The position numbers and the translations under genes were made by a program. Under the pieces are notes generated by a model. It ran no database searches. It saw only the letters and a program-made list of their open reading frames with translations, and had not been told where the DNA came from. From positions 2,567 through 66,566 of the forward strand of contig CAZKRI010000042.1 of assembly GCA_964555245.1 (NCBI GenBank): DNA of 64,000 nucleotides, read 5' to 3'. The stretch is from an uncultured Myxococcales bacterium. Its GTDB lineage: Bacteria; Desulfobacterota; Binatia; UBA1149; SPBQ01. Shown here in pieces: positions 3,669 to 57,923 of the stretch (the stretch's first letter is position 1; each line of letters starts with the position of its first letter).

Positions 3669-4390
3669 CAGTTCCCGTCGCGCACCTGGCTAGTGCGGCG
3701 CTTGCCCGAGCGCTCAAGTAGCAGGTTCGCGGCCAGACGTCAGCCGCGCGCGTGCGGTGACCCCCACGCGGGTGGTCGCAGGGGTTCTGTCCCTCGGACA
3801 AGAGCCTGACGATCGTCGAAACGCGCAGGATCGATGGACACGGCCATTGACTACGGCGAGTGGGTAGGGACAATTAGCGCGGTTTTTCCATTGCGACGTA
3901 CGATAAGACGGTTTATCTCAGCCACTCAGGGTCGAGACCACTACGCGGGGCTTGTTAGCCGCGGCCGCGTCGGCTCGCAGGCAGGGTGGTCTGGGAGAGA
4001 GGGGCGTCATTACAGGTGTGTGTTGGTGGAGACCGGACCGGGAGCGCGACGGTGGTCAGGGGTCAGCCCCTTGCGGAGGATGGCTACGCCGGAGGTCGAG
4101 CGAATGACGCGCCGGCAGGGCACCGGACGGTGGTATCACCCGCGGATGGGCCGGGTGGAGCACGAGGAGTGAGCCCGAGCGAGTCGAGGATGGCACTCGT
4201 TGCTTCGGGTGGGTGAATCGTCGCGAGGATCTTCATCTTGCCGCCGCACGCAGCGTGGTCCGCTGACGTAGACCGCTTCCTCCGGGTCGACGAAGTCTCC
4301 GATGCGGACAATGCCTCGAACATCCGGATGACGATACCGAAGAACCTTGCGATCTCGGGCACGCGTGCGGCACGCGTAGTTCCTCGTGAA

Positions 4391-4407
4391 CTAGACCTGA
4401 CCCCATT
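4391..4407. repeat. solo half-copy of the GGGGTCAGGTCTA hairpin-repeat family (CTAGACCTGACCCCATT)
   Basis: 16/16 identity to the right arms at 32872-32888 and 34356-34372 (TAGACCTGACCCCATT). Lies ~75 bp upstream of the Rieske gene start. Confidence 0.6.
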
Positions 4408-9309: not shown

Positions 9310-11639
9310 TCCTGCCGCGGCTTGGCGGGATCGTCGGGGCGTTCACGAAAGAGAATCCAAAGCGCGGCGGGCAGCGCGGTGAAGTCCGCGATCATCGACA
9401 GGACGAACGCCAGCGCCGAGAGCATGCCGAACTGGCGTATCGGCGGGAGGTCGGCGAGTCCGAAAGCCAGAAAGCCACCGGCGTTGATGAGTGTCGCGAA
9501 GCCGATCGCCCGCCCGGAGACCAGGAGCGTGTGCCGCAAGGCCTGTTCGACGCTGCCGCGCCGGCGCCCTTCGAGGAAGTGATAGAAGAAGTGGATCTGG
9601 TCGTTCTCGGAGGTGCCCAGCACCGTCGAGGCAATGAGAATCGTCGCGACGTTGAGCATCATCCCGCTGACGCGCATCACCCCGAACATCACCAGGATCG
9701 CGAAGATCGATGGAATCATCGCCATCAGCCGCGCGGTGCCGTTTCGGAAGATCAACAGAAACGTGCCGAAGATGATCACCACGGTGAGGGTGAAGCTCTC
9801 GGCGAGAGTCGGCACTAAGCTCTGTGCCATCTTTGCTTGCAGCGGTGCCAGCCCGACGACCTGCAGCTCGAGCTCATGCAGGGCGGGGTTTGCCGCGAGC
9901 GCGGACGACCAGCTCTCGCCGATCATGCCGCGAAGGCGCTCGTAGTCCTCGCCTTCGTTGCTCCGGCTGATGACCGTGAGCTGGGCCTGCGCCAGGCCCG
10001 GCGGATCTACGAAGCGACTGATTAACGGTTCATGCGCAGCGATCGCTTCCAGATCGCCCGCCACCTGATCGAGCGTTGCCGCGTCCGTCGGCCACGCGTC
10101 ACCCGCCCCACCGATGTAGCGCAGCATGCGGAGGATGGTCGTTGGACCGACGACGGCGCCGACGTCCGGTGCGGCCTCCAGCGCATGTTGAAAGTCGTAC
10201 AGCCCGGTGAGCACGTCGGGCTCTGACATGCTGCCGACGTCACCTTTGAGCCACACGTGCGTGACCGACAGTCCCGGGATGACCGGCGTGAGGCGGCGCA
10301 TGTCTTGATAGATCGGTGCGGCATGATCGATGTACTCGAGCGGCTCGGTCAGCAGTGGCATCGGAGTGACGACGCCCGGCAGCCCGAAGACGGCGACCAG
10401 GCCCGCCGCCGACAAACCGAGCGGCGCCACCACCAAGGGCCAGCGCCAGCGATAGGTGAAGCGCGGAAGGTTCGTCGCCAGATGCGTCAACCACGCCGCT
10501 GCACCGCGCTGCTCTTGCTCCGTCGGCGTGCGTAAAATCTTCTGCAGCGCGGGGAAGAGCGTGAACACCGTCACCCACGTCAGCGCCAGACCGACGGCCA
10601 CCCACAGGCCCATCTCGCGAATGATGCGAAGGTTGGAGATCCCGAGTGCCGCGAAGCCGGCCGCGGTCGCAAAGATCGACGCCGTGCAAGGTACGAACTT
10701 GTTGGTGAGCGTGAACAACTGGTGGGCGTCGACCGCGCGATCGGCGGGACGCTCGACGAAGCGCGATTGCAGGTAGACCAAGGTGGCGCTTGCCGTCACC
10801 AGGACGGTCATCGGCACCATGGGCGAGACGAGCGTGAACGTGCCACCGGTCAGACCGATGTAGCCAACGCACAGGGCCAAACACATGGCGAGGGTGAGCA
10901 CGAATGCGACGAGCGTGCGGAACGATCGGTACAGGGCGATCGTGAGGGCGATCACGAACAGGCCGAAGAGCACGAAGTAGAGCGGTGCCGAGCGCTGCGC
11001 GTCGTCGAGGTAGACATTGACGAAGGACTGGCCGAGCCGGCTGATGTGCCGCACAGGCCCCAGATCGGCCGCAACGGTCGCCAGCGCCCGATCAATGGCG
11101 GCAACCGTCTCCTGGCGTTCCAGACTACCGCGGACATCGAGCACGAGACCGATCGCGAGATAGTGCGCCCCGAACAGCCCCTGGCGCCGAAACAGATCGG
11201 TCCCGGTGGCAAAGTCACGCAAGCGGGCGACCTGATCGCCCGTGGGCTCGAAGCCGGCCCTCGCGCGGCGATAGACCGACAGCAACGAGTTCGTTGTCAG
11301 CCGCGGAATGCCCTGCAAGGCGCGTTCGATGCGGTCGACCCGTTCGACCACAGCTGCGTCGAACGGGTCATCGGCCTCGGCCAGCAGCAACGCAAACTCG
11401 CCGGCGCCGAATGTCTCCTCGAACGCCCGCGTAGCGACGTAGTCTGGGTCGCTGTGCGCCAACAACCGGTCGATCGAGTTGTCCTGCCCGACCTGCGCGG
11501 CATAGTACGCGCTGGGCGGCAACAGCAGCGCGTAGACGACGATCACGTACCAGCGCCACGCGATGACCCTGGCGAACGCGCGCGCCAGCCACGGCGGATC
11601 GTACAACCCACCCTCCCCCCGCTCGAATGGTCGCGCCAT
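9303..11639 (-). CDS. MMPL/RND-superfamily exporter
   Basis: 778 aa. Two 6-TM bundles, each followed by a large periplasmic loop: typical MMPL/RND topology. Confidence 0.75.
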   Translation of the reverse strand: MARPFERGEGGLYDPPWLARAFARVIAWRWYVIVVYALLLPPSAYYAAQVGQDNSIDRLLAHSDPDYVATRAFEETFGAGEFALLLAEADDPFDAAVVERVDRIERALQGIPRLTTNSLLSVYRRARAGFEPTGDQVARLRDFATGTDLFRRQGLFGAHYLAIGLVLDVRGSLERQETVAAIDRALATVAADLGPVRHISRLGQSFVNVYLDDAQRSAPLYFVLFGLFVIALTIALYRSFRTLVAFVLTLAMCLALCVGYIGLTGGTFTLVSPMVPMTVLVTASATLVYLQSRFVERPADRAVDAHQLFTLTNKFVPCTASIFATAAGFAALGISNLRIIREMGLWVAVGLALTWVTVFTLFPALQKILRTPTEQEQRGAAAWLTHLATNLPRFTYRWRWPLVVAPLGLSAAGLVAVFGLPGVVTPMPLLTEPLEYIDHAAPIYQDMRRLTPVIPGLSVTHVWLKGDVGSMSEPDVLTGLYDFQHALEAAPDVGAVVGPTTILRMLRYIGGAGDAWPTDAATLDQVAGDLEAIAAHEPLISRFVDPPGLAQAQLTVISRSNEGEDYERLRGMIGESWSSALAANPALHELELQVVGLAPLQAKMAQSLVPTLAESFTLTVVIIFGTFLLIFRNGTARLMAMIPSIFAILVMFGVMRVSGMMLNVATILIASTVLGTSENDQIHFFYHFLEGRRRGSVEQALRHTLLVSGRAIGFATLINAGGFLAFGLADLPPIRQFGMLSALAFVLSMIADFTALPAALWILFRERPDDPAKPRQDQ

Positions 11640-21647: not shown

Positions 21648-21845
21648 CTACTTCAGCGAGGCGGTGACCTTCTCGATCTTGCCGGTGAACGTGAACGGCA
21701 CGTGGTAGTCCTCGCTGACCGGCGTACCGGTGTCCTCGCCGATATCGAGGGTCTCGTCTAGCGACACGCAGACCGGAATGGGGCGTTCCACCCGACCCGT
21801 GGCGGACGCGCCCTTGCTGGCAGCGCTCAGCTCATGTCGAAGCAA
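21648..21845 (-). pseudogene. C-terminal remnant of a second arylsulfatase (paralogue of 363-2852)
   Basis: SLDETLDIGEDTGTPVSEDYHVPFTFTGKIEKVTASLK aligns with the C-terminus of the intact sulfatase (SIDESFDVGIDTRTGVDDSYELPFRFTGKIDKLTFKLG). No upstream catalytic domain remains. Confidence 0.7.
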
Positions 21846-21977
21846 CCTTCGGTCGGTTCGTAGAATCGAGAGCCTAGGATGGTTTAGCGCTATTTCACCG
21901 ACTAGGTCATGTCAACAAAGTACGCGTGGAGTAAGACCTCCGCCGCATACTGAGCCGGGCTACGACAATCGTCGCTC

Positions 21978-31509: not shown

Positions 31510-32808
31510 ATGAACCGCGGCATGCGAAACGTGAGAGAGCATTGGCTCTTGGTTCTTGCCGCCGGCCTTTGCCTCTGCAACGGCAACGCGTCCGAGAGCT
31601 TCGCCGCGGGATTCTGGCTCTACGAGTCCGGACAGCCGGACCTGGGCCTGGCAGCAGCCGGGCGGGCGGCCGCTGCCAAGGATGCGTCGACGGCCGGCAG
31701 CAACCCGGCCGGAATGACGCGGCTGGATCGGTCTCAGGCACTGGCCGGCGTCGAGGGCATCTTCGGTACCGCCGAGTTCGATACCGACTCCGGCACCACG
31801 GTCACTGGCGGCAACGGCGGCAACGCGGCCAGCCCCACTCCGTTGCTCGGATCGGCCTACGTTCACAGCCTGTCGGACCGCTGGAGACTCGGCGTCACGC
31901 TCGGATCCGCGTTTGGCGGGGCTCTCAACTACAACAAGCAGTGGGCAGGCCGGTACTACGGCCAAGACGTGTCGCTAACGACGCTCACACTCAACCCGGC
32001 GGCGGCCTACCGGATCAACGAACTACTATCGGTCGGCGCGGGGCTTACGGTGATGTACAGCAAGCTCAAAGAGCACACCGCGATCAACAACGTGCTCGAG
32101 TCTCTTCCCGACGGCCGCCTCAAGTACAACGACGATGCCGTCGCGCTCGGCGGCTTTGCCGGAGTGATGCTGGAGCTCGCTCCGGGCTCGCGGATCGGCG
32201 CGACGTATCGTTCGAAGATCGACCTGGACTTTCGCGACCGCGTGTCCTTCAGCGGTCTGGGACCTGGCCTGGAAGCCGCGCTCGACTCTCGCGGTCTCAT
32301 CGACGCACCGCTCGGGCTCACAATGACCGTTCCTCAAGGCGTGATGGTGAGCGGGTATCACGAGCTCAACGACCGGCTCGCGCTTCTGGCCAACGTCGGA
32401 TGGCAGGACTGGAGCCAGTTCGGCAACGTGGACGTCGGCATCACTACAGACACGACAACGAATCTCAGCGTTGATCTCGATCTGGACGATACGTATCACC
32501 TCGCACTCGGCTTGCAGGTTCGGTTGGCCGAGCCGTGGCTTTGGTCGGTTGGCACTGCCTACGACAGTTCTCCGATGGACGTGTCGAGCCGGAGCCCGGT
32601 GTTGCCGATGGACCGCCAGATCCGCTACGGCACGGGCATCCAATACGACTGGAGCGAGAAGACCACCCTCGGCATGGCCTACGAGTTCCTCGATCTGGGT
32701 GAGAACAATATCAACGTTTCGCGTGGCCCGCTGGCCGGTACCCTACAAGGCGACTTCGACAAGAACTACGTCAATTTCGTGAACCTCACGGTCATCCGCC
32801 GCTTCTAG
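31510..32808 (+). CDS. FadL/TodX/OmpP1-family outer-membrane hydrophobic-compound channel
   Basis: 432 aa. Signal peptide. Beta-strand-rich sequence ending in a C-terminal Phe (VIRRF). FadL-like N-terminal hatch segment (GFWLYESGQPDLGLAAAG). Confidence 0.8.
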   Translation: MNRGMRNVREHWLLVLAAGLCLCNGNASESFAAGFWLYESGQPDLGLAAAGRAAAAKDASTAGSNPAGMTRLDRSQALAGVEGIFGTAEFDTDSGTTVTGGNGGNAASPTPLLGSAYVHSLSDRWRLGVTLGSAFGGALNYNKQWAGRYYGQDVSLTTLTLNPAAAYRINELLSVGAGLTVMYSKLKEHTAINNVLESLPDGRLKYNDDAVALGGFAGVMLELAPGSRIGATYRSKIDLDFRDRVSFSGLGPGLEAALDSRGLIDAPLGLTMTVPQGVMVSGYHELNDRLALLANVGWQDWSQFGNVDVGITTDTTTNLSVDLDLDDTYHLALGLQVRLAEPWLWSVGTAYDSSPMDVSSRSPVLPMDRQIRYGTGIQYDWSEKTTLGMAYEFLDLGENNINVSRGPLAGTLQGDFDKNYVNFVNLTVIRRF

Positions 32809-32888
32809 AATGGGGTCAGGTCTAATTTCCCGCTGAACGGGTCCAGCTCTACTCCGCGTCGTTGCGGGAAATTAGACCTGACCCCATT
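32809..32888. repeat. perfect 24-bp inverted repeat with a 32-bp spacer, between the fadL-like stop and the pyk start
   Basis: AATGGGGTCAGGTCTAATTTCCCG ... CGGGAAATTAGACCTGACCCCATT. Shares a 16-17-mer core with the elements at 34319-34372 and 4391-4407. The core is AT-rich for this genome. Confidence 0.8.
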
Positions 32889-32894
32889 TCCAGG

Positions 32895-34355
32895 ATGAGC
32901 TTCCCGTCGCACAAAACGAAGATCGTCGCGACGATCGGCCCGGCTTCCGAGTCGCGCGAGGTGCTCGAGCGCATGCTTCGCGCGGGCGTGAACGTGGCGC
33001 GCCTCAATTTCTCGCACGGGGACTTCGCCACCCACGAGCGGGTCCTCGCCAACCTCCGTGCGGCCTCCGCAGCGACCGGGATCCGGGTCACTACCATGGC
33101 GGATCTGGCGGGTCCGAAGATGCGCGTCGGTGAAGTCGCCGGCGGGATGATCGAACTGCGCAGCGGCGACCGGTTCACGCTGACGACCGAAGAGGTCGCG
33201 GGCGACCAGAGCCGGGTATCGGTGTCCTTCGCGCGGCTGCCGCAGGTGGTCAAGCCCGGTGACCTTCTCTCGCTCAACGACGGATACATCCAGTTGAGCG
33301 TCGCCAGGGTCAGTGGCCACGAGGTGGACTGCACGGTGGTGGTGGGTGGCGAGCTGCGCTCGAAGAAAGGGCTCAACCTTCCTGGTATCGACCTAGGGAT
33401 CGGCGCGTTCACCGATCGCGATCGCGAGTGCCTACGCTTTGCGCTCGAACGCGGAGTGGACGCCGTCAGCGTGTCGTTCGTCGAGAGCGCGGACGATCTT
33501 CGTGCGGTACGGCGTACGGCTGAGGAACTGGGACATACCCCGTTCCTCATCGCCAAGATCGAGCGCGCCCGAGCACTGGAGCGCCTCGACGAGATCCTCG
33601 AAGAAACCGACGGCGTGATGATCGCCCGCGGCGACCTTGGGGTGGAGGTGCCGATCGAGCGAATCGCCCTGGTTCAGAAGGACATCGTGCGTCGCGCCAA
33701 TCGTCTGGCCAAGCCGGCGATCACCGCCACCCAGATGCTCGAGTCCATGACCACTCACCGGCTGCCGACCCGTGCCGAGGCGACCGACGTCGCCAACGCG
33801 ATCCTCGATGCCACCGACTGCGTGATGCTGTCGGGCGAGTCGGCGGTCGGCGCCTATCCGGTAGAAGCGGTGGAGATGCTGGCGAAGATCGCTACCACCG
33901 TCGAGGCCGCGGTACAGCGCACGTCAGTCGCGGAACTTGCCAAGAGTCTCGCCGAGACCGGCGGCTTGCGTCCCGAGCACCTGGTCGCGGCCGCTGTCGA
34001 AGCGACGCTCCGCTACGCGAAGCCCGCCGCCGTGTTCACACCCACACGCAGCGGCGCCTCCGCCCGGCGTGTCTCGGCGCTGCGTCTGCCCGTGTGGACC
34101 TTCGCCGTGAGCCCGAGCGACAAGGTCTGCCAGCAGTTGCAGTTCTCGTACGGCGTCTTCGCCGTCCACGCGCCGGAGGATCCGGAGTCGTGGAACGCGT
34201 ACATCGAGCGTACGCTACGCCGCTACGGCATCTCCGGCCGCATGGCTTTGCTGACCAACGGCCCTTCTGCCAAGCATCCGGACACCAACCATCGTCTGGA
34301 AATCGTCGAGCTGGGTCGAATTGGGGTCAGGTCTAATTTGCCGCGAAGCGGCTAA
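32895..34355 (+). CDS. pyk: pyruvate kinase
   Basis: ATG at 32895 (MSFPSHKTKIVATIGPAS...). PK motifs NFSHG, MIARGDLGVE, MLSGESA. The last ~12 codons (..IGVRSNLPRSG*) are encoded by the hairpin element at 34319-34372. Confidence 0.9.
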   Translation: MSFPSHKTKIVATIGPASESREVLERMLRAGVNVARLNFSHGDFATHERVLANLRAASAATGIRVTTMADLAGPKMRVGEVAGGMIELRSGDRFTLTTEEVAGDQSRVSVSFARLPQVVKPGDLLSLNDGYIQLSVARVSGHEVDCTVVVGGELRSKKGLNLPGIDLGIGAFTDRDRECLRFALERGVDAVSVSFVESADDLRAVRRTAEELGHTPFLIAKIERARALERLDEILEETDGVMIARGDLGVEVPIERIALVQKDIVRRANRLAKPAITATQMLESMTTHRLPTRAEATDVANAILDATDCVMLSGESAVGAYPVEAVEMLAKIATTVEAAVQRTSVAELAKSLAETGGLRPEHLVAAAVEATLRYAKPAAVFTPTRSGASARRVSALRLPVWTFAVSPSDKVCQQLQFSYGVFAVHAPEDPESWNAYIERTLRRYGISGRMALLTNGPSAKHPDTNHRLEIVELGRIGVRSNLPRSG

Positions 34356-34372
34356 TTAGACCTGACCCCATT
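34319..34372. repeat. hairpin element (shorter variant of 32809-32888) between the convergent pyk and pqiB stops
   Basis: AATTGGGGTCAGGTCTAATTTGCCGCGAAGCGGCTAATTAGACCTGACCCCATT. Near-perfect ~26-bp stem with a GAA loop. Confidence 0.75.
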
Positions 34373-35778
34373 CACTTGTGATGGTGAAACAGGTCGGTGA
34401 ACCAATGGTGCGAAGATCCCGGCTTGCCCGCAGTGTCTCCTTTGTAGTGATAGTCGACCGGAGCGGCTGCCGAGCTGGTCGCGACTGCCGCGGGCGCCGG
34501 GTCTTTCCCTGATCCCACCCAGATGTGCGGCGCCCAGTCCTGCGCTTGGTCGTCCGCTTTTTCTTGAATCTGAAACACGGAGCCGGCCTTCACGCGCGCG
34601 CCGGGCTGGTCGGGAGTGGCGAACGTGATGCCGCCCTCCAGCAAGGCCTCGAGCGATTCCGTCTGGATGTGCACGCCGTGCAGCCCGAGACCCGCCGAGA
34701 TCCCGCTCGCGTTCCAGAAGACCGAGTTCGTGCGTACCAGGGCGTCATAGGGCGCGTCGATTTCGACCAGAATGCCAACCGACTGGCCGTTGGTATTGAG
34801 CTGCGACGAGACGACTCTGCCCACCGCGACTTCGCGGTAGAGGACCGGATCTCCGGCCTTGAGCGAGCCGAGCCGGGAGGCCTCCAGGACGATTCGAAAC
34901 TGGCTCTCCGCATCGCGCGACTTCATCGCTTCCTCGCGCGTCGCAAAGAGCGAGTAGCTGGCCCCGGCGCTCGGCGGTTTGCCGGGGGCTCCGAGTGTGT
35001 CGAAGGCGATCCCTCCGGCGATCAACGCCCCCACGGATGCGAGGTCGACTTTGACGCCCGTCAAGCCGGCCGCAACCCGGATCCCGCTGGCGTTCCAGAA
35101 GACCGTGTTGTCCAGAATGTGGTGTGCATAGGGTTCCTGGATCAGGAGATGGACGGCGATCTTGTCGCTGTGCGAGTCGAACGCATGGCCGAGGATCTGA
35201 CCGACCGCCGCGCCGCGGTAGTAGACAGCGGATCCGTCGGTGATCCCGCCGAGGTCGTTCGTTTCCAGCAGGACTCGCAGCCCTTTCTGATCGGACAGAT
35301 CGAGAGGCTGCTGCATGGCGCCCGCGAAGATGTGCTGGCTCTTGCCGCCGGGTCGCGCCGGCTCGCAGGCGATGTAGACACCGGAGATGAGGGTGCCGAG
35401 GCCGCTCACGCCGGTGATCCCAACGTGTGGGCTTACGATCCAGAAGCGTGTGCCATCGATCAGATGCGGCTCGGCTTCCTTGGCCATCTGCGCCGTCACG
35501 ACCACGTGGGCGAGATCGGGGCTGACCTGAACGTCCGTCACACTGCCGATCTCGACACCCTTGTATTGAATGTTGGTCTTTCCGGCGGCTATTCCACCGG
35601 CCGCGTCGAAGGTAATCGTGATCGTGGAGCCTTTCTGCGTGTAGGTTCGATACGCAAGCCCACCGGCCACCGCTGCCGCGACCAGGGGAATCAACCATAC
35701 GATCGCGAGGCCACGCGCCACGTGGACTTCCGCTTCGGGCACCTCCGCGTCTTCGGAGAGCGTTTCGCGCTGTGTCAT
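34372..35778 (-). CDS. pqiB: PqiB/MlaD-like multi-MCE-domain protein
   Basis: 468 aa. N-terminal TM anchor, then repeated MCE domains (QYKGVEIGSVTDV..., AVYYRGAAVGQI..., PVLYREVAVGRV...). Confidence 0.8.
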   Translation of the reverse strand: MTQRETLSEDAEVPEAEVHVARGLAIVWLIPLVAAAVAGGLAYRTYTQKGSTITITFDAAGGIAAGKTNIQYKGVEIGSVTDVQVSPDLAHVVVTAQMAKEAEPHLIDGTRFWIVSPHVGITGVSGLGTLISGVYIACEPARPGGKSQHIFAGAMQQPLDLSDQKGLRVLLETNDLGGITDGSAVYYRGAAVGQILGHAFDSHSDKIAVHLLIQEPYAHHILDNTVFWNASGIRVAAGLTGVKVDLASVGALIAGGIAFDTLGAPGKPPSAGASYSLFATREEAMKSRDAESQFRIVLEASRLGSLKAGDPVLYREVAVGRVVSSQLNTNGQSVGILVEIDAPYDALVRTNSVFWNASGISAGLGLHGVHIQTESLEALLEGGITFATPDQPGARVKAGSVFQIQEKADDQAQDWAPHIWVGSGKDPAPAAVATSSAAAPVDYHYKGDTAGKPGSSHHWFTDLFHHHK

Positions 35779-37040
35779 TTTCGCACCTCGGTCGCGTCCC
35801 AGATCAGTCGTGGATCGAACGCCCTAGCGGCGAACATGGTGGTGACGACGACCGCCGCGAAGCAGGTAGCGCCGACACCAGGCACGATGGTGGCTACCGC
35901 GCCGAGCTGAACCAACGCGACCAGGATCGAGGTCATGAACATGTCGATCATGGACCAGCGGCCGACGTACTCGACGATCCGGAACACGACCGTGCGCTCA
36001 CGCGCACGCCGCCGCCACCTCCCATGGACGGAAAGCAGAAGAAAGGTCAGCCCGAACAGCTTGAGCATCGGCACGGCGATGCTGGCGAAGAAGACGAGAG
36101 CGCCGATCTCCCACATGCCGGCGCCGAAGAGCTGGACCACTCCCTCGTAGATCGTGTCCGTCTGCGGTTTGCCGAGCAGATCCATCTGCAAGACCGGGTA
36201 GGCATTCGCCGGTACGTAGAGAATAGCCGCCGTCAGTGCCAGCGCCCAGGTCCGTGAGAGGCTTGCCGGCTTGCGCCGCTCCAGCGCGCCGCGGCAGCGT
36301 GGGCAACGAAGCGGCCGTTCCCCGGCCGCACGCGGGGGTGCACAGAGCAGACTGCAGCTTTCGCACGAGATCAGGCTAGCCGTCGAAAGCACGTGCGAGG
36401 GTCCGCCGGCTGCCTCGGGCTTGGGCGGCGGCAGCGCCGCCCAGACTACGCGAGGATCGAGCGCGTCGTAGGCGGCCGCCAGAACGACGATGAGCGTGCC
36501 GAACGCGTAGAGCGCAGTGGCGGGCTCGATCGACGCCATCTGGTCGAGTTTGACTACCGCGACCATCGTTCCGAGGAGGTACACCTCCAGCATCGACCAA
36601 GGGCGCAAACGGTTGAGCACGCGAAACAGGGGCCCGAGGTGAGGCGCACGCGAGCCCGCCTTGATGGCGATCATCAGATAAACCATCCCCAACATGTGCA
36701 GCAGCGGCGCGAGCATGCTGGTGAACAGGATCAGCGCCGCCAACGGCCCGTAGCCGACGGCCCCGAGCTGCACGACGCCGCTCAGGATCTGGTTCGACTG
36801 CGACTGACCCTTGAGCTCGAAGATCATGAACGTGCTGACGTTGGCGATGAGCCACAGCGGCAGGGCCGCCAGCATCAGGGCGAGGGAGCGGTTGAGGGAA
36901 TCGCGCCGGGTCCGGTAGAGCGTGCCGCCACAGCGAGGGCAGCAGGCCGTGCCGCCCTCGGGTAGGGCCGGCCCCCGCTGCAGCAGGTCGCACTCGTTAC
37001 AGCGAATGAGCGGTGTCGCGTCAGAGCCTGCAACGCTCAC
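35775..37040 (-). CDS. pqiA: PqiA-like integral membrane protein (two repeated halves, each with a Cys zinc-ribbon)
   Basis: 421 aa. CNECDL...CPRCGG in the first half and CESCSL...CPRCRG in the second. 4-bp overlaps with both neighbouring genes. Confidence 0.8.
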   Translation of the reverse strand: MSVAGSDATPLIRCNECDLLQRGPALPEGGTACCPRCGGTLYRTRRDSLNRSLALMLAALPLWLIANVSTFMIFELKGQSQSNQILSGVVQLGAVGYGPLAALILFTSMLAPLLHMLGMVYLMIAIKAGSRAPHLGPLFRVLNRLRPWSMLEVYLLGTMVAVVKLDQMASIEPATALYAFGTLIVVLAAAYDALDPRVVWAALPPPKPEAAGGPSHVLSTASLISCESCSLLCAPPRAAGERPLRCPRCRGALERRKPASLSRTWALALTAAILYVPANAYPVLQMDLLGKPQTDTIYEGVVQLFGAGMWEIGALVFFASIAVPMLKLFGLTFLLLSVHGRWRRRARERTVVFRIVEYVGRWSMIDMFMTSILVALVQLGAVATIVPGVGATCFAAVVVTTMFAARAFDPRLIWDATEVRK

Positions 37041-57801: not shown

Positions 57802-57879
57802 TCGTCGCTGCCGCTGCACTTCGCCGTAGACGATGTAGCTGCATTGGCTTTAGTCGTGCATGAGCATTCTGCGAATCGA

Positions 57880-57916
57880 TCCATGAAATCCGATCACGCT
57901 ACGATCAGATTTCATG
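57880..57916. terminator. perfect 10-bp inverted repeat (CCATGAAATC / GATTTCATGG) with a 17-nt loop, in an AT-rich gap between convergent genes
   Basis: Read directly. Lies between the stop of 56842-57801 (+) and the stop of the HIT gene (-). No U-tract, so this is at best a Rho-dependent or structural terminator candidate. Confidence 0.35.
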
Positions 57917-57923
57917 GTACGTA

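Follow-up and report, generated by a model that had tools for sequence, protein, structure and literature searches.

How does the gene of a core glycolytic enzyme come to lie between two copies of one hairpin, and to take its last codons and its stop from one of them? The question is raised by a 64,000-nucleotide stretch of DNA from an uncultured Myxococcales bacterium (placed by GTDB in the class Binatia; assembly GCA_964555245.1, contig CAZKRI010000042.1, positions 2,567 to 66,566), which is referred to below as the window, and to which all copy counts for the source genome apply. In it the pyruvate kinase gene (pyk) is bracketed by copy A (upstream) and copy B (downstream) of a palindromic element. 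An earlier note, made from the letters of this DNA, had taken the hairpins for members of a dispersed family resembling repetitive extragenic palindromes (REPs) or transposable elements of the miniature inverted-repeat kind (MITEs), one of which remodelled the 3' end of pyk. On the evidence set out here we think it rather probable that they are copies of a small, fully palindromic, non-autonomous element (of the same kind as REP/REPIN sequences, MITEs and the Rickettsia palindromic elements, RPEs) that has spread within and between genomes.

Hairpins on either side of the pyruvate kinase gene

Copies A and B are the two strongest local inverted repeats of the window, and a covariance model based on nine members of the family scores them at 89 bits (E 2.7e-22) and 52.8 bits (E 2.7e-12), respectively, while finding no further full copy in the 64 kb. 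Copy A, which represents the long form of the element, has arms of 25 nt that are 100% complementary and stand 30 nt apart (the perfect 24-bp repeat with a 32-bp spacer described before was thus essentially right, as was its placement between the fadL-like stop and the pyk start). Its loop is asymmetric, with a GAACGG motif on the + strand, and the copy fills the whole fadL-pyk spacer: it begins right after the TAG at 32806-32808 (TAG being followed by AAT-GGGG), and 6 nt separate its right end from the pyk ATG at 32895. Copy B is of the short form, with 23-nt arms (96% complementary, i.e. one mismatch) around a 3-nt loop, on the same plan as the short forms of a Gemmatimonadaceae genome (L064) and of a metagenome contig (L077). 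Pairing of the flanks (G34318 with C34373) lengthens this hairpin, which corresponds to the shorter variant with a stem of about 26 bp (34319-34372) in the earlier note, and the copy occupies the entire convergent spacer between pyk and pqiB. Both copies are strongly folded in the RNA predictions that the note had called for (-55 and -45 kcal/mol for A and B, z-scores -8.5 to -10.5), and their DNA folds lie at about -33 kcal/mol. The 16-mer GGGGTCAGGTCTAATT of the arms has four exact occurrences in the window and a fifth that differs by one base (4389-4404, minus strand), against a mean of 0.02 matches in dinucleotide-preserving shuffles, none of which (0 of 100) reached five.

The mismatched occurrence belongs to a third locus, earlier listed as a half-site at 4391-4407; the repeat is indeed present there, as a truncated copy that reads AATGGGGTCAGGTCTAGTTC-ACGAG-GAACTA on the minus strand, the remainder of the second arm being gone. 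It yields no significant RNA fold, and it sits in a non-coding stretch upstream of the Rieske/cytochrome b operon. The adjoining sequence (4084-4400, minus strand) looks like gene debris, in which one piece, VPEIARFFGIVIRMF, resembles a DUF4160-type N-terminus and another, CGGKMKILATIHPPEATSAILDSLGL, an IS91-type transposase C-terminus; neither has a match in Pfam. Elsewhere in the window, the only other terminator-like palindrome grazed by the covariance model is an unrelated AT-rich hairpin (CCATGAAATCCGATC...GATCAGATTTCATGG, 57877-57921) between two convergent genes.

A pyruvate kinase terminus read from the element

From the ATT at 34320 onward the codons of pyk are element sequence; the reading passes through the left arm of copy B and stops in the right arm, at the TAA of 34353-34355. 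As the earlier note had proposed, the copy therefore encodes the final 10-13 residues of the enzyme as well as the stop, and the protein (ending ...IVELGRIGVRSNLPRSG) continues for 13 residues (GRIGVRSNLPRSG) past the usual end of its orthologues. The stop itself involves the sole mismatched base of the copy B stem, T34353. Since the left arm and the inner-stem consensus of the family (AATTTG...CAAATT) both predict an A at this position, T34353 is the derived base, and a point mutation in the right arm is what ends pyruvate kinase; with an A the frame would read GGC-AAA-TTA and gain 16 further codons.

We compared this terminus with those of 120 full-length orthologues (64-70% identical, the best relatives being at 68-70%), whose C-termini were judged on 59 aligned rows. 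Most of the latter end in ...NHR(M/L/V)E(I/L)(I/V)xL, a minority carry two extra residues (KK, KR, RR or NR), and 4 of the 59 have unrelated tails of 4-13 residues. A tail held in common with orthologous genes, which had been set beforehand as a possible refutation, was found in none of the 59, and a search with the last 150 residues against 5.8 billion proteins returned nothing above 59% identity and nothing that spanned the tail. The original stop could have been destroyed by the insertion or lost later; in this regard a single transition would turn the CGA at 34317-34319 into TGA, which it may once have been.

Table 1. Positions of the hairpin copies and of the genes around them in the window
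Feature	Position	Strand	Anatomy or evidence
Copy A, long form	32809-32888		arms 32809-32833 and 32864-32888, loop 32834-32863; inverted-repeat search, covariance model
Copy B, short form	34318-34373		left arm 34322-34344, loop GAA 34345-34347, right arm 34348-34370
Truncated copy	about 4370-4407	-	outer arm with one mismatch (AATGGGGTCAGGTCTAGTTC), 5-nt loop, 6 nt of second arm
pyk tail (GRIGVRSNLPRSG and stop), absent from orthologues	34314-34355	+	orthologue alignment
Pyruvate kinase (pyk), bracketed by copies A and B	32895-34355	+	Pfam PK 7.4e-113, PK_C 1.1e-12
FadL/TodX-type outer-membrane transporter	31510-32808	+	Pfam Toluene_X 2.3e-63; TAG abuts copy A
PqiB-like, three MlaD domains	34372-35778	-	Pfam MlaD 3e-36
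PqiA	35775-37040	-	Pfam PqiA

Distribution and anatomy of the family

An exact search for the 16-mer in one genome per GTDB species gave 74 stretches, of which few are clearly the same element: those of the Gemmatimonadaceae metagenome-assembled genome (MAG) L064, of Planctomicrobium piriforme (L025), of an Acidobacteriota MAG (L020), and of Planctomyces and Pirellulaceae MAGs (L068, L060). The majority are chance or coding matches, mostly single (e.g. a Pseudohongiella-type conserved gene ending ..FQIRPDP), and the candidate L042 was discarded as FemAB-like coding sequence. The full hairpin, searched in 241 million metagenome records, was recovered from six contigs (L075-L080), which include one from a Planctomycete (L079) and one from a close relative of the window organism (L080). 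Confinement of the 16-mer to the three loci of the window, likewise set beforehand as a possible refutation, is thus contradicted by Gemmatimonadaceae, Planctomycete and Acidobacteriota genomes and by the six contigs. The L064 genome holds two full copies and one arm inside 1.2 kb; one of its copies is 100% identical to that of L077 over 51 nt, copy A of the window matches L078 at 91% over 78 nt in the opposite orientation, and P. piriforme matches L079 at 91.5% over 71 nt. The genes beside the copies are unrelated to one another (glutathione S-transferase (GST), S-adenosylmethionine-dependent methyltransferase, family III CoA-transferase, electron transfer flavoprotein, class III aminotransferase, zinc dehydrogenase, ParDE, FitA/PIN).

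Alignment of nine long-form copies revealed a stem of 22 pairs, seven of which show compensatory double substitutions; the outer arm GGGGTCAGGT is invariant, the inner stem varies, though by paired substitutions only, and the loop motif G(R)AACG(G) is confined to one side of the loop. The element measures about 53-90 nt, with a loop of roughly 27-30 nt (starting G(R)AACG) in the long form, and the short forms (copy B, L064 and L077), which retain the arms around a 3-nt loop, are read as deletion derivatives of the long one. Its outer flanks are A/T-rich, i.e. (G)AAAT...ATTT(C) in the window and AAAAA...TTTTT in the Planctomycetes, whose copies otherwise have the same ends and loop motif. The DNA of two proteins carrying the Planctomycete variant follows the same plan with another inner arm (GAAAAAGGGGTCAGGTACCTTTTGCCGGAACGGCCCGGAGGGTGCTGCGCACAAAAGGTACCTGACCCCTTTTTC), and reaches 73-80 bits with the covariance model.

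Viral contigs gave no match to the hairpin and none to the arm, a plasmid collection gave no match to the element, and Rfam gave none at the gathering threshold and, below it (E <= 10), only generic miRNA-precursor hairpin noise. Literature searches by DNA string, encoded peptide and topic did not find the element, returning unrelated primers or nothing. We regard the family as new and its kind (REP/MITE/RPE-like) as known; it is described in neither Rfam nor the searchable literature.

Several further observations concern the arms and their surroundings. The arm GGTCAGGTCC (GGAA; CCGGAA next in some members; also in the related locus L081 at 10224-10240) resembles the 5' strand of domain IV, which is universally conserved, of signal recognition particle RNA (E. 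coli 4.5S), perhaps by chance; this RNA did not come up when the element was scanned against Rfam at E <= 10. Toxin-antitoxin pairs adjoin copies in two contigs (ParD/ParE in L080, 179-750; FitA-like/PIN in L078, 789-1477). Other repeat families begin, several times per locus, with GGGGTCAGGTCT(TG..) or AAGGGGTCA in Vibrio bivalvicida (L028), Atribacter (L061) and Verrucomicrobia (L027), and the start GGGGTCAGG may be common to many such families. The genomes of L079 and L081 are rich in palindromic repeats, and L081 bears, at about 9330-9400, a GTAG-tagged REP doublet (GTAGGGTGCGTGAAACGCACC...).

Copies within genes and at their ends

The pyk tail is one of several cases in which the element is translated. 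The GatB of the Planctomycete contig L079 contains it in frame (...NLHIDT[EKGSGLICAQHPAGRSGKLDLTPF]PPAGTIATPIVEVKNMNS...), with 31 residues where Thermotoga maritima GatB (3al0_B) has 5, i.e. about 26 extra, and in P. piriforme it lies in frame (KKGSGLIDRNGPEGAAHQLDLTPFS) within an open reading frame (ORF) of 1620 codons whose product is P-loop NTPase-like by sequence. A peptide search brought 14 predicted proteins with the Planctomycete variant (among them RNase HI, PdxA, PadR and ferredoxin); as 5 of these read CA(K/Q)HPxGRSGK and 9 read RNGPEGAAHK, both orientations occur. The same L079 GatB holds a second repeated peptide, PHPNPLPKGEGT, twice (64-330), which presumably stems from another repeat family.

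Where the element lies at the end of a gene, it repeatedly provides the stop or adjoins it. Both convergent genes of L076 end in ..KWGQV and the L064 CoA-transferase ends in ..KRGQV, all at the TAA of GGTCTAA, and the stops of fadL in the window, of the L064 methyltransferase and of the L077 dehydrogenase directly abut the GGGG. In each arm the AT-rich core (TCTAATT/AATTAGA) contains a TAA or TAG in one frame out of three, and genes struck at their ends therefore usually terminate soon afterwards.

Age and constraint of copy A

The close relative L080 has a copy in the corresponding place upstream of its own pyk, which over the first 123 codons is 90% identical in DNA to that of the window (pS 0.31, dN 0.026). 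On account of this shared site, copy A is old and was present before the two lineages split. Homology between the two sequences starts exactly at the left end of the element, upstream of which L080 has ParD/ParE and the window fadL. Two differences among 50 positions separate the arms, and they form one compensatory pair (CCCGC/GCGGG versus CCGGC/GCCGG); at the synonymous-site rate, two or fewer differences have P = 2.7e-6. The loops are identical at 14 of 27 positions. Judged by these substitutions, either the arm sequence, and not pairing alone, is under constraint, or it is repeatedly homogenised from other copies, and the loop either drifts freely or is swapped.

Proposed origin and mobility

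On the reading that we hold to be rather probable, copies would spread, in either orientation, both inside a genome and from one to another, and would survive where the harm is small, that is, at gene 3' ends, in convergent spacers, and in frame within protein surface loops or termini. Copy B would have replaced or absorbed the pyk stop, after which translation would run 13 codons longer and end at the point-mutation TAA in the right arm; what holds the arms of copy A constant would be either a sequence-specific constraint or homogenisation with other copies. Mobilisation could take place in trans, by way of a single-stranded DNA hairpin, through a RAYT-like (REP-associated tyrosine transposase) HUH enzyme of the TIRYT type (TnpA-REP subclass 2.1), which we infer as a lead. 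Flanking direct repeats are absent from all of the 14 copies examined, and for HUH enzymes a target duplication is not expected. Outside the arms the palindrome continues into the flanks (GAAAT...ATTTC, CGGAAAA...TTTTCCG, and ten further pairs in L075). The element is likened to single-stranded DNA elements moved by HUH enzymes (IS200/IS605, RAYT) because its copies combine a perfect hairpin, no target duplication, either orientation and no nearby transposase. Moreover, the arms begin in nearly all members with GGGGTCAG, which fits the published motif GGGG[AT][CG]A[CG]; in L081 and L020 one arm each departs from it by one base.

A number of observations weigh against this proposal. The copy number looks low (2.5 copies in 64 kb, usually one or two loci in the reference genomes, a single 1.2-kb cluster in the Gemmatimonadaceae MAG), and just 6 exact hairpins were present among the 241 million metagenome records, so that the family looks low-copy and globally rare. 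No Y1 transposase was found in the window (Pfam) or adjoining any copy, and none in five further contexts; the only Y1_Tnp trace is a truncated sub-threshold fragment in L068 (18 bits versus a cut-off of 23), 2 kb from the copies and not flanked by arms. Likewise, an HUH motif scan of about 220 kb of related loci gave no Y1 gene flanked by element arms, and the inward-facing arm pairs that stand 0.2-2.5 kb apart in L060, L068 and L042 enclose no transposase. We infer transposition rather than observe it, and a match to a degenerate motif of 8 nt is weak evidence. Two occurrences of arm sequence also sit poorly with it. The GST gene of L064 contains 22 nt of arm identity (253-278; ..YLEEIRPDPILIG.., ..EEIRPDPIL..) at a length unchanged from that of solved GSTs, which a simple insertion does not explain; a full element copy lies 270 nt away, and the sequence suggests a gene-conversion patch instead of an insertion. 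One Acidimicrobiales MAG (L013, L019, L029 and L058) carries in four unrelated contexts a 36-nt unit, CTTAACyTTTsGGGGTCAGGTCTAATTTGTTAAGTC, which holds the 16-mer once, unpaired in the loop of a 6-bp hairpin. Together, the patch and the unit would point to sequence-specific recognition of the 16-mer.

Relation to known repeat families

The closest published counterparts of the element's ends are found beside TIRYT genes, which are RAYT-like and flanked by inverted repeats, many with the motif GGGGWSAS, some of which form moderately abundant families (Di Nocera et al. 2013, PMC3733652). TIRYT corresponds to TnpA-REP subclass 2.1 and to RAYT group 1 of Bertels, the most widely distributed subclass, with the motif GGGG[AT][CG]A[CG] (Quentin et al. 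2018, PMC6006769). Compared by this published motif only, the element's GGGGTCAG matches the ends of the TIRtron terminal inverted repeats (TIRs), which like the element occur as moderately abundant or low-copy families and often as inverted dimers. TIRYT hosts include Acidobacteria and, separately, R. baltica has many tyrosine transposase genes with flanking repeats (PMC3733652); the element, too, is present in Acidobacteriota. It differs from the TIRs in that no TIRYT gene was flanked by its arms in the DNA examined, and in that its conserved asymmetric loop and its long and short forms are not described for them.

With REP and REPIN sequences the element shares a palindromic, non-autonomous nature, extragenic positions at gene 3' ends and in convergent spacers, long hairpins and long persistence at fixed sites; REPs, too, may extend over the ends of coding sequences, provide stop codons and on occasion sit within genes (PMC3733652). 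It lacks, however, a GTAG/CTAC or CGTC/GACG tag at its arm ends, and its arms are not themselves palindromic REP units (a REP being an imperfect palindrome of 20-40 bp). The REP/MITE-like dispersed family of the earlier note is supported by the copies in unrelated contexts. Its copy number appears low, with two full copies and a truncated one in 64 kb, as opposed to the tens to hundreds per genome of REPs. REPIN populations are, furthermore, typically lineage-specific, whereas this family crosses phyla. In its behaviour, and with no sequence relationship, the element resembles the RPEs and the Coxiella QMITEs (PMC5896051), in-frame palindromic selfish elements that add a peptide without destroying the protein: such behaviour is seen in GatB, the NTPase-like ORF, the 14 predicted proteins (RNase H among them) and the pyk tail. 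Unlike these, it has free-living, GC-rich hosts, and it is shorter and almost perfectly self-complementary. MITEs derived from insertion sequences (IS), e.g. the Correia elements, are likewise small, end in inverted repeats and affect the genes beside them (PMC10969869), but the 14 element copies show no target-site duplication, no parent IS with the element's ends was found, and its repeat spans the whole length and not two ends only. As for intrinsic terminators (a GC-rich stem followed by a U-tract), the window copies have AUUU only, and the Planctomycete relatives T5 on both sides. By the features that define these classes, the element is neither a REP nor an IS-derived MITE, an attC site or (in the window) an intrinsic terminator.

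Alternative explanations

The positions at gene 3' ends and between convergent genes invite the view that hosts have selected the hairpins as structures of transcript ends (bidirectional terminators, insulators or stabilisers of mRNA 3' ends), which would be similar through selection and not through mobility. The A5/T5 flanks of the Planctomycete copies have the shape of a bidirectional intrinsic terminator, the stems are conserved through compensatory change, and at the orthologous site conservation of the arms far exceeds that of synonymous positions. Selection on structure alone, however, leaves unexplained the identical arms of 16-25 nt and the homologous loops across loci and phyla, and a terminator would do harm in the in-frame copies within genes, which occur in both orientations. 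In the window, where AUUU is all that follows the stems, a promoter/terminator scan flagged neither copy as a terminator or promoter, and copy A stands 6 nt before the pyk start, so that a strong terminator would sever pyk from any upstream promoter. We thus regard this explanation as unlikely for the origin of the hairpins, while a mobile element could plausibly have taken on a transcript-end function (as terminator or mRNA stabiliser) secondarily, by exaptation, the two being compatible. If copy A is transcribed, a hairpin of -55 kcal/mol sits against the start codon of pyk; if it is an efficient terminator, pyk is left without a promoter. That the conserved 16-mer is the binding site of a sequence-specific host protein or RNA, with the hairpin form incidental, would fit the invariance of the outer arm across phyla (the inner stem and the loop being variable), the unpaired 16-mer in the four Acidimicrobiales contexts and the patch in the GST gene. 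No candidate binder was identified, and an arm spacing that ranges from 3 to 30 nt is unfit for a dimeric binder of double-stranded DNA; a transposase would itself be such a binder, so that this idea, which we judge very unlikely on its own terms, overlaps with mobility.

A single gene lies between two hairpins both in the window (pyk) and in L064 (the methyltransferase), the gene order shared with L080 is lost precisely where copy A begins on the left (ParDE in place of fadL), and the middle of the element, like that of attC, is of variable length; hence the hairpins might be recombination sites that bound single-gene cassettes, like integron attC or other targets of structure-specific recombinases. 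Yet the stems are perfect, without extrahelical bases, cores of the RYYYAAC/GTTRRRY type are missing, copies occur within coding sequences, the bracketed genes are ordinary housekeeping ones, and the window has no integrase or recombinase. Anatomy and the missing integrase led us to reject identity with integron attC, and recombination sites of this sort in general appear extremely improbable. A wider version of the mobile-element explanation would make the hairpins non-autonomous partners of group-1 RAYT/TIRYT enzymes and members of one ancient, phylum-crossing superfamily (Planctomycetota, Gemmatimonadota, Acidobacteriota and possibly Actinomycetota), kept by their hosts as portable 'stop-and-hairpin' modules. 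Retention by the host would account for the roughly eightfold greater conservation of the arms, at an orthologous site, over synonymous positions; published surveys report no REP-like sequences next to genes of the group-1 RAYT/TIRYT class (PMC6006769). We put this version forward tentatively and consider it doubtful as it stands, and retain the small, non-autonomous palindromic element that spreads within and between genomes as the explanation to be preferred.

Genomic surroundings

The genes that frame the two hairpins are listed in Table 1; the stop of the PqiB-like gene (TGA, 34372-34374) overlaps the ATT flank of copy B. The remaining genes of the window are ordinary chromosomal ones (sulfatase, cytochrome b/Rieske, MMPL, MgtE, DUF3604, WS/DGAT, Mrp antiporter, molybdopterin oxidoreductase, PPDK, tRNA synthetase), and the Pfam scan of the 64 kb found no transposase, integrase or Y1 HUH domain among them. 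A short ORF on the minus strand (21648-21911) ends in ..DYHVPFTFTGKIEKVTASLK and resembles the C-terminus of the sulfatase at 363-2852; it probably represents a fragment of a pseudogene, and the stretch of about 1.7 kb in which it lies has no clear gene.

Implications

For the annotation of genomes that carry the element, spurious or extended ORFs are to be expected at its copies, recognisable by peptides such as ..GVRSNF.., ..GSGLI.., ..KLDLTPF or a terminal ..WGQV. At the pyk locus we would have a clear case, in a bacterium that is free-living and GC-rich, of a core glycolytic enzyme whose end has been rewritten by a selfish palindromic element. The family joins traits that are usually found apart, i.e. 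a REP-like position at gene ends, an RPE-like residence in frame, ends with the TIRYT motif, and a low copy number across phyla. If the link to TIRYT is true, it would offer a natural substrate with which to test that large and poorly understood class of transposases.

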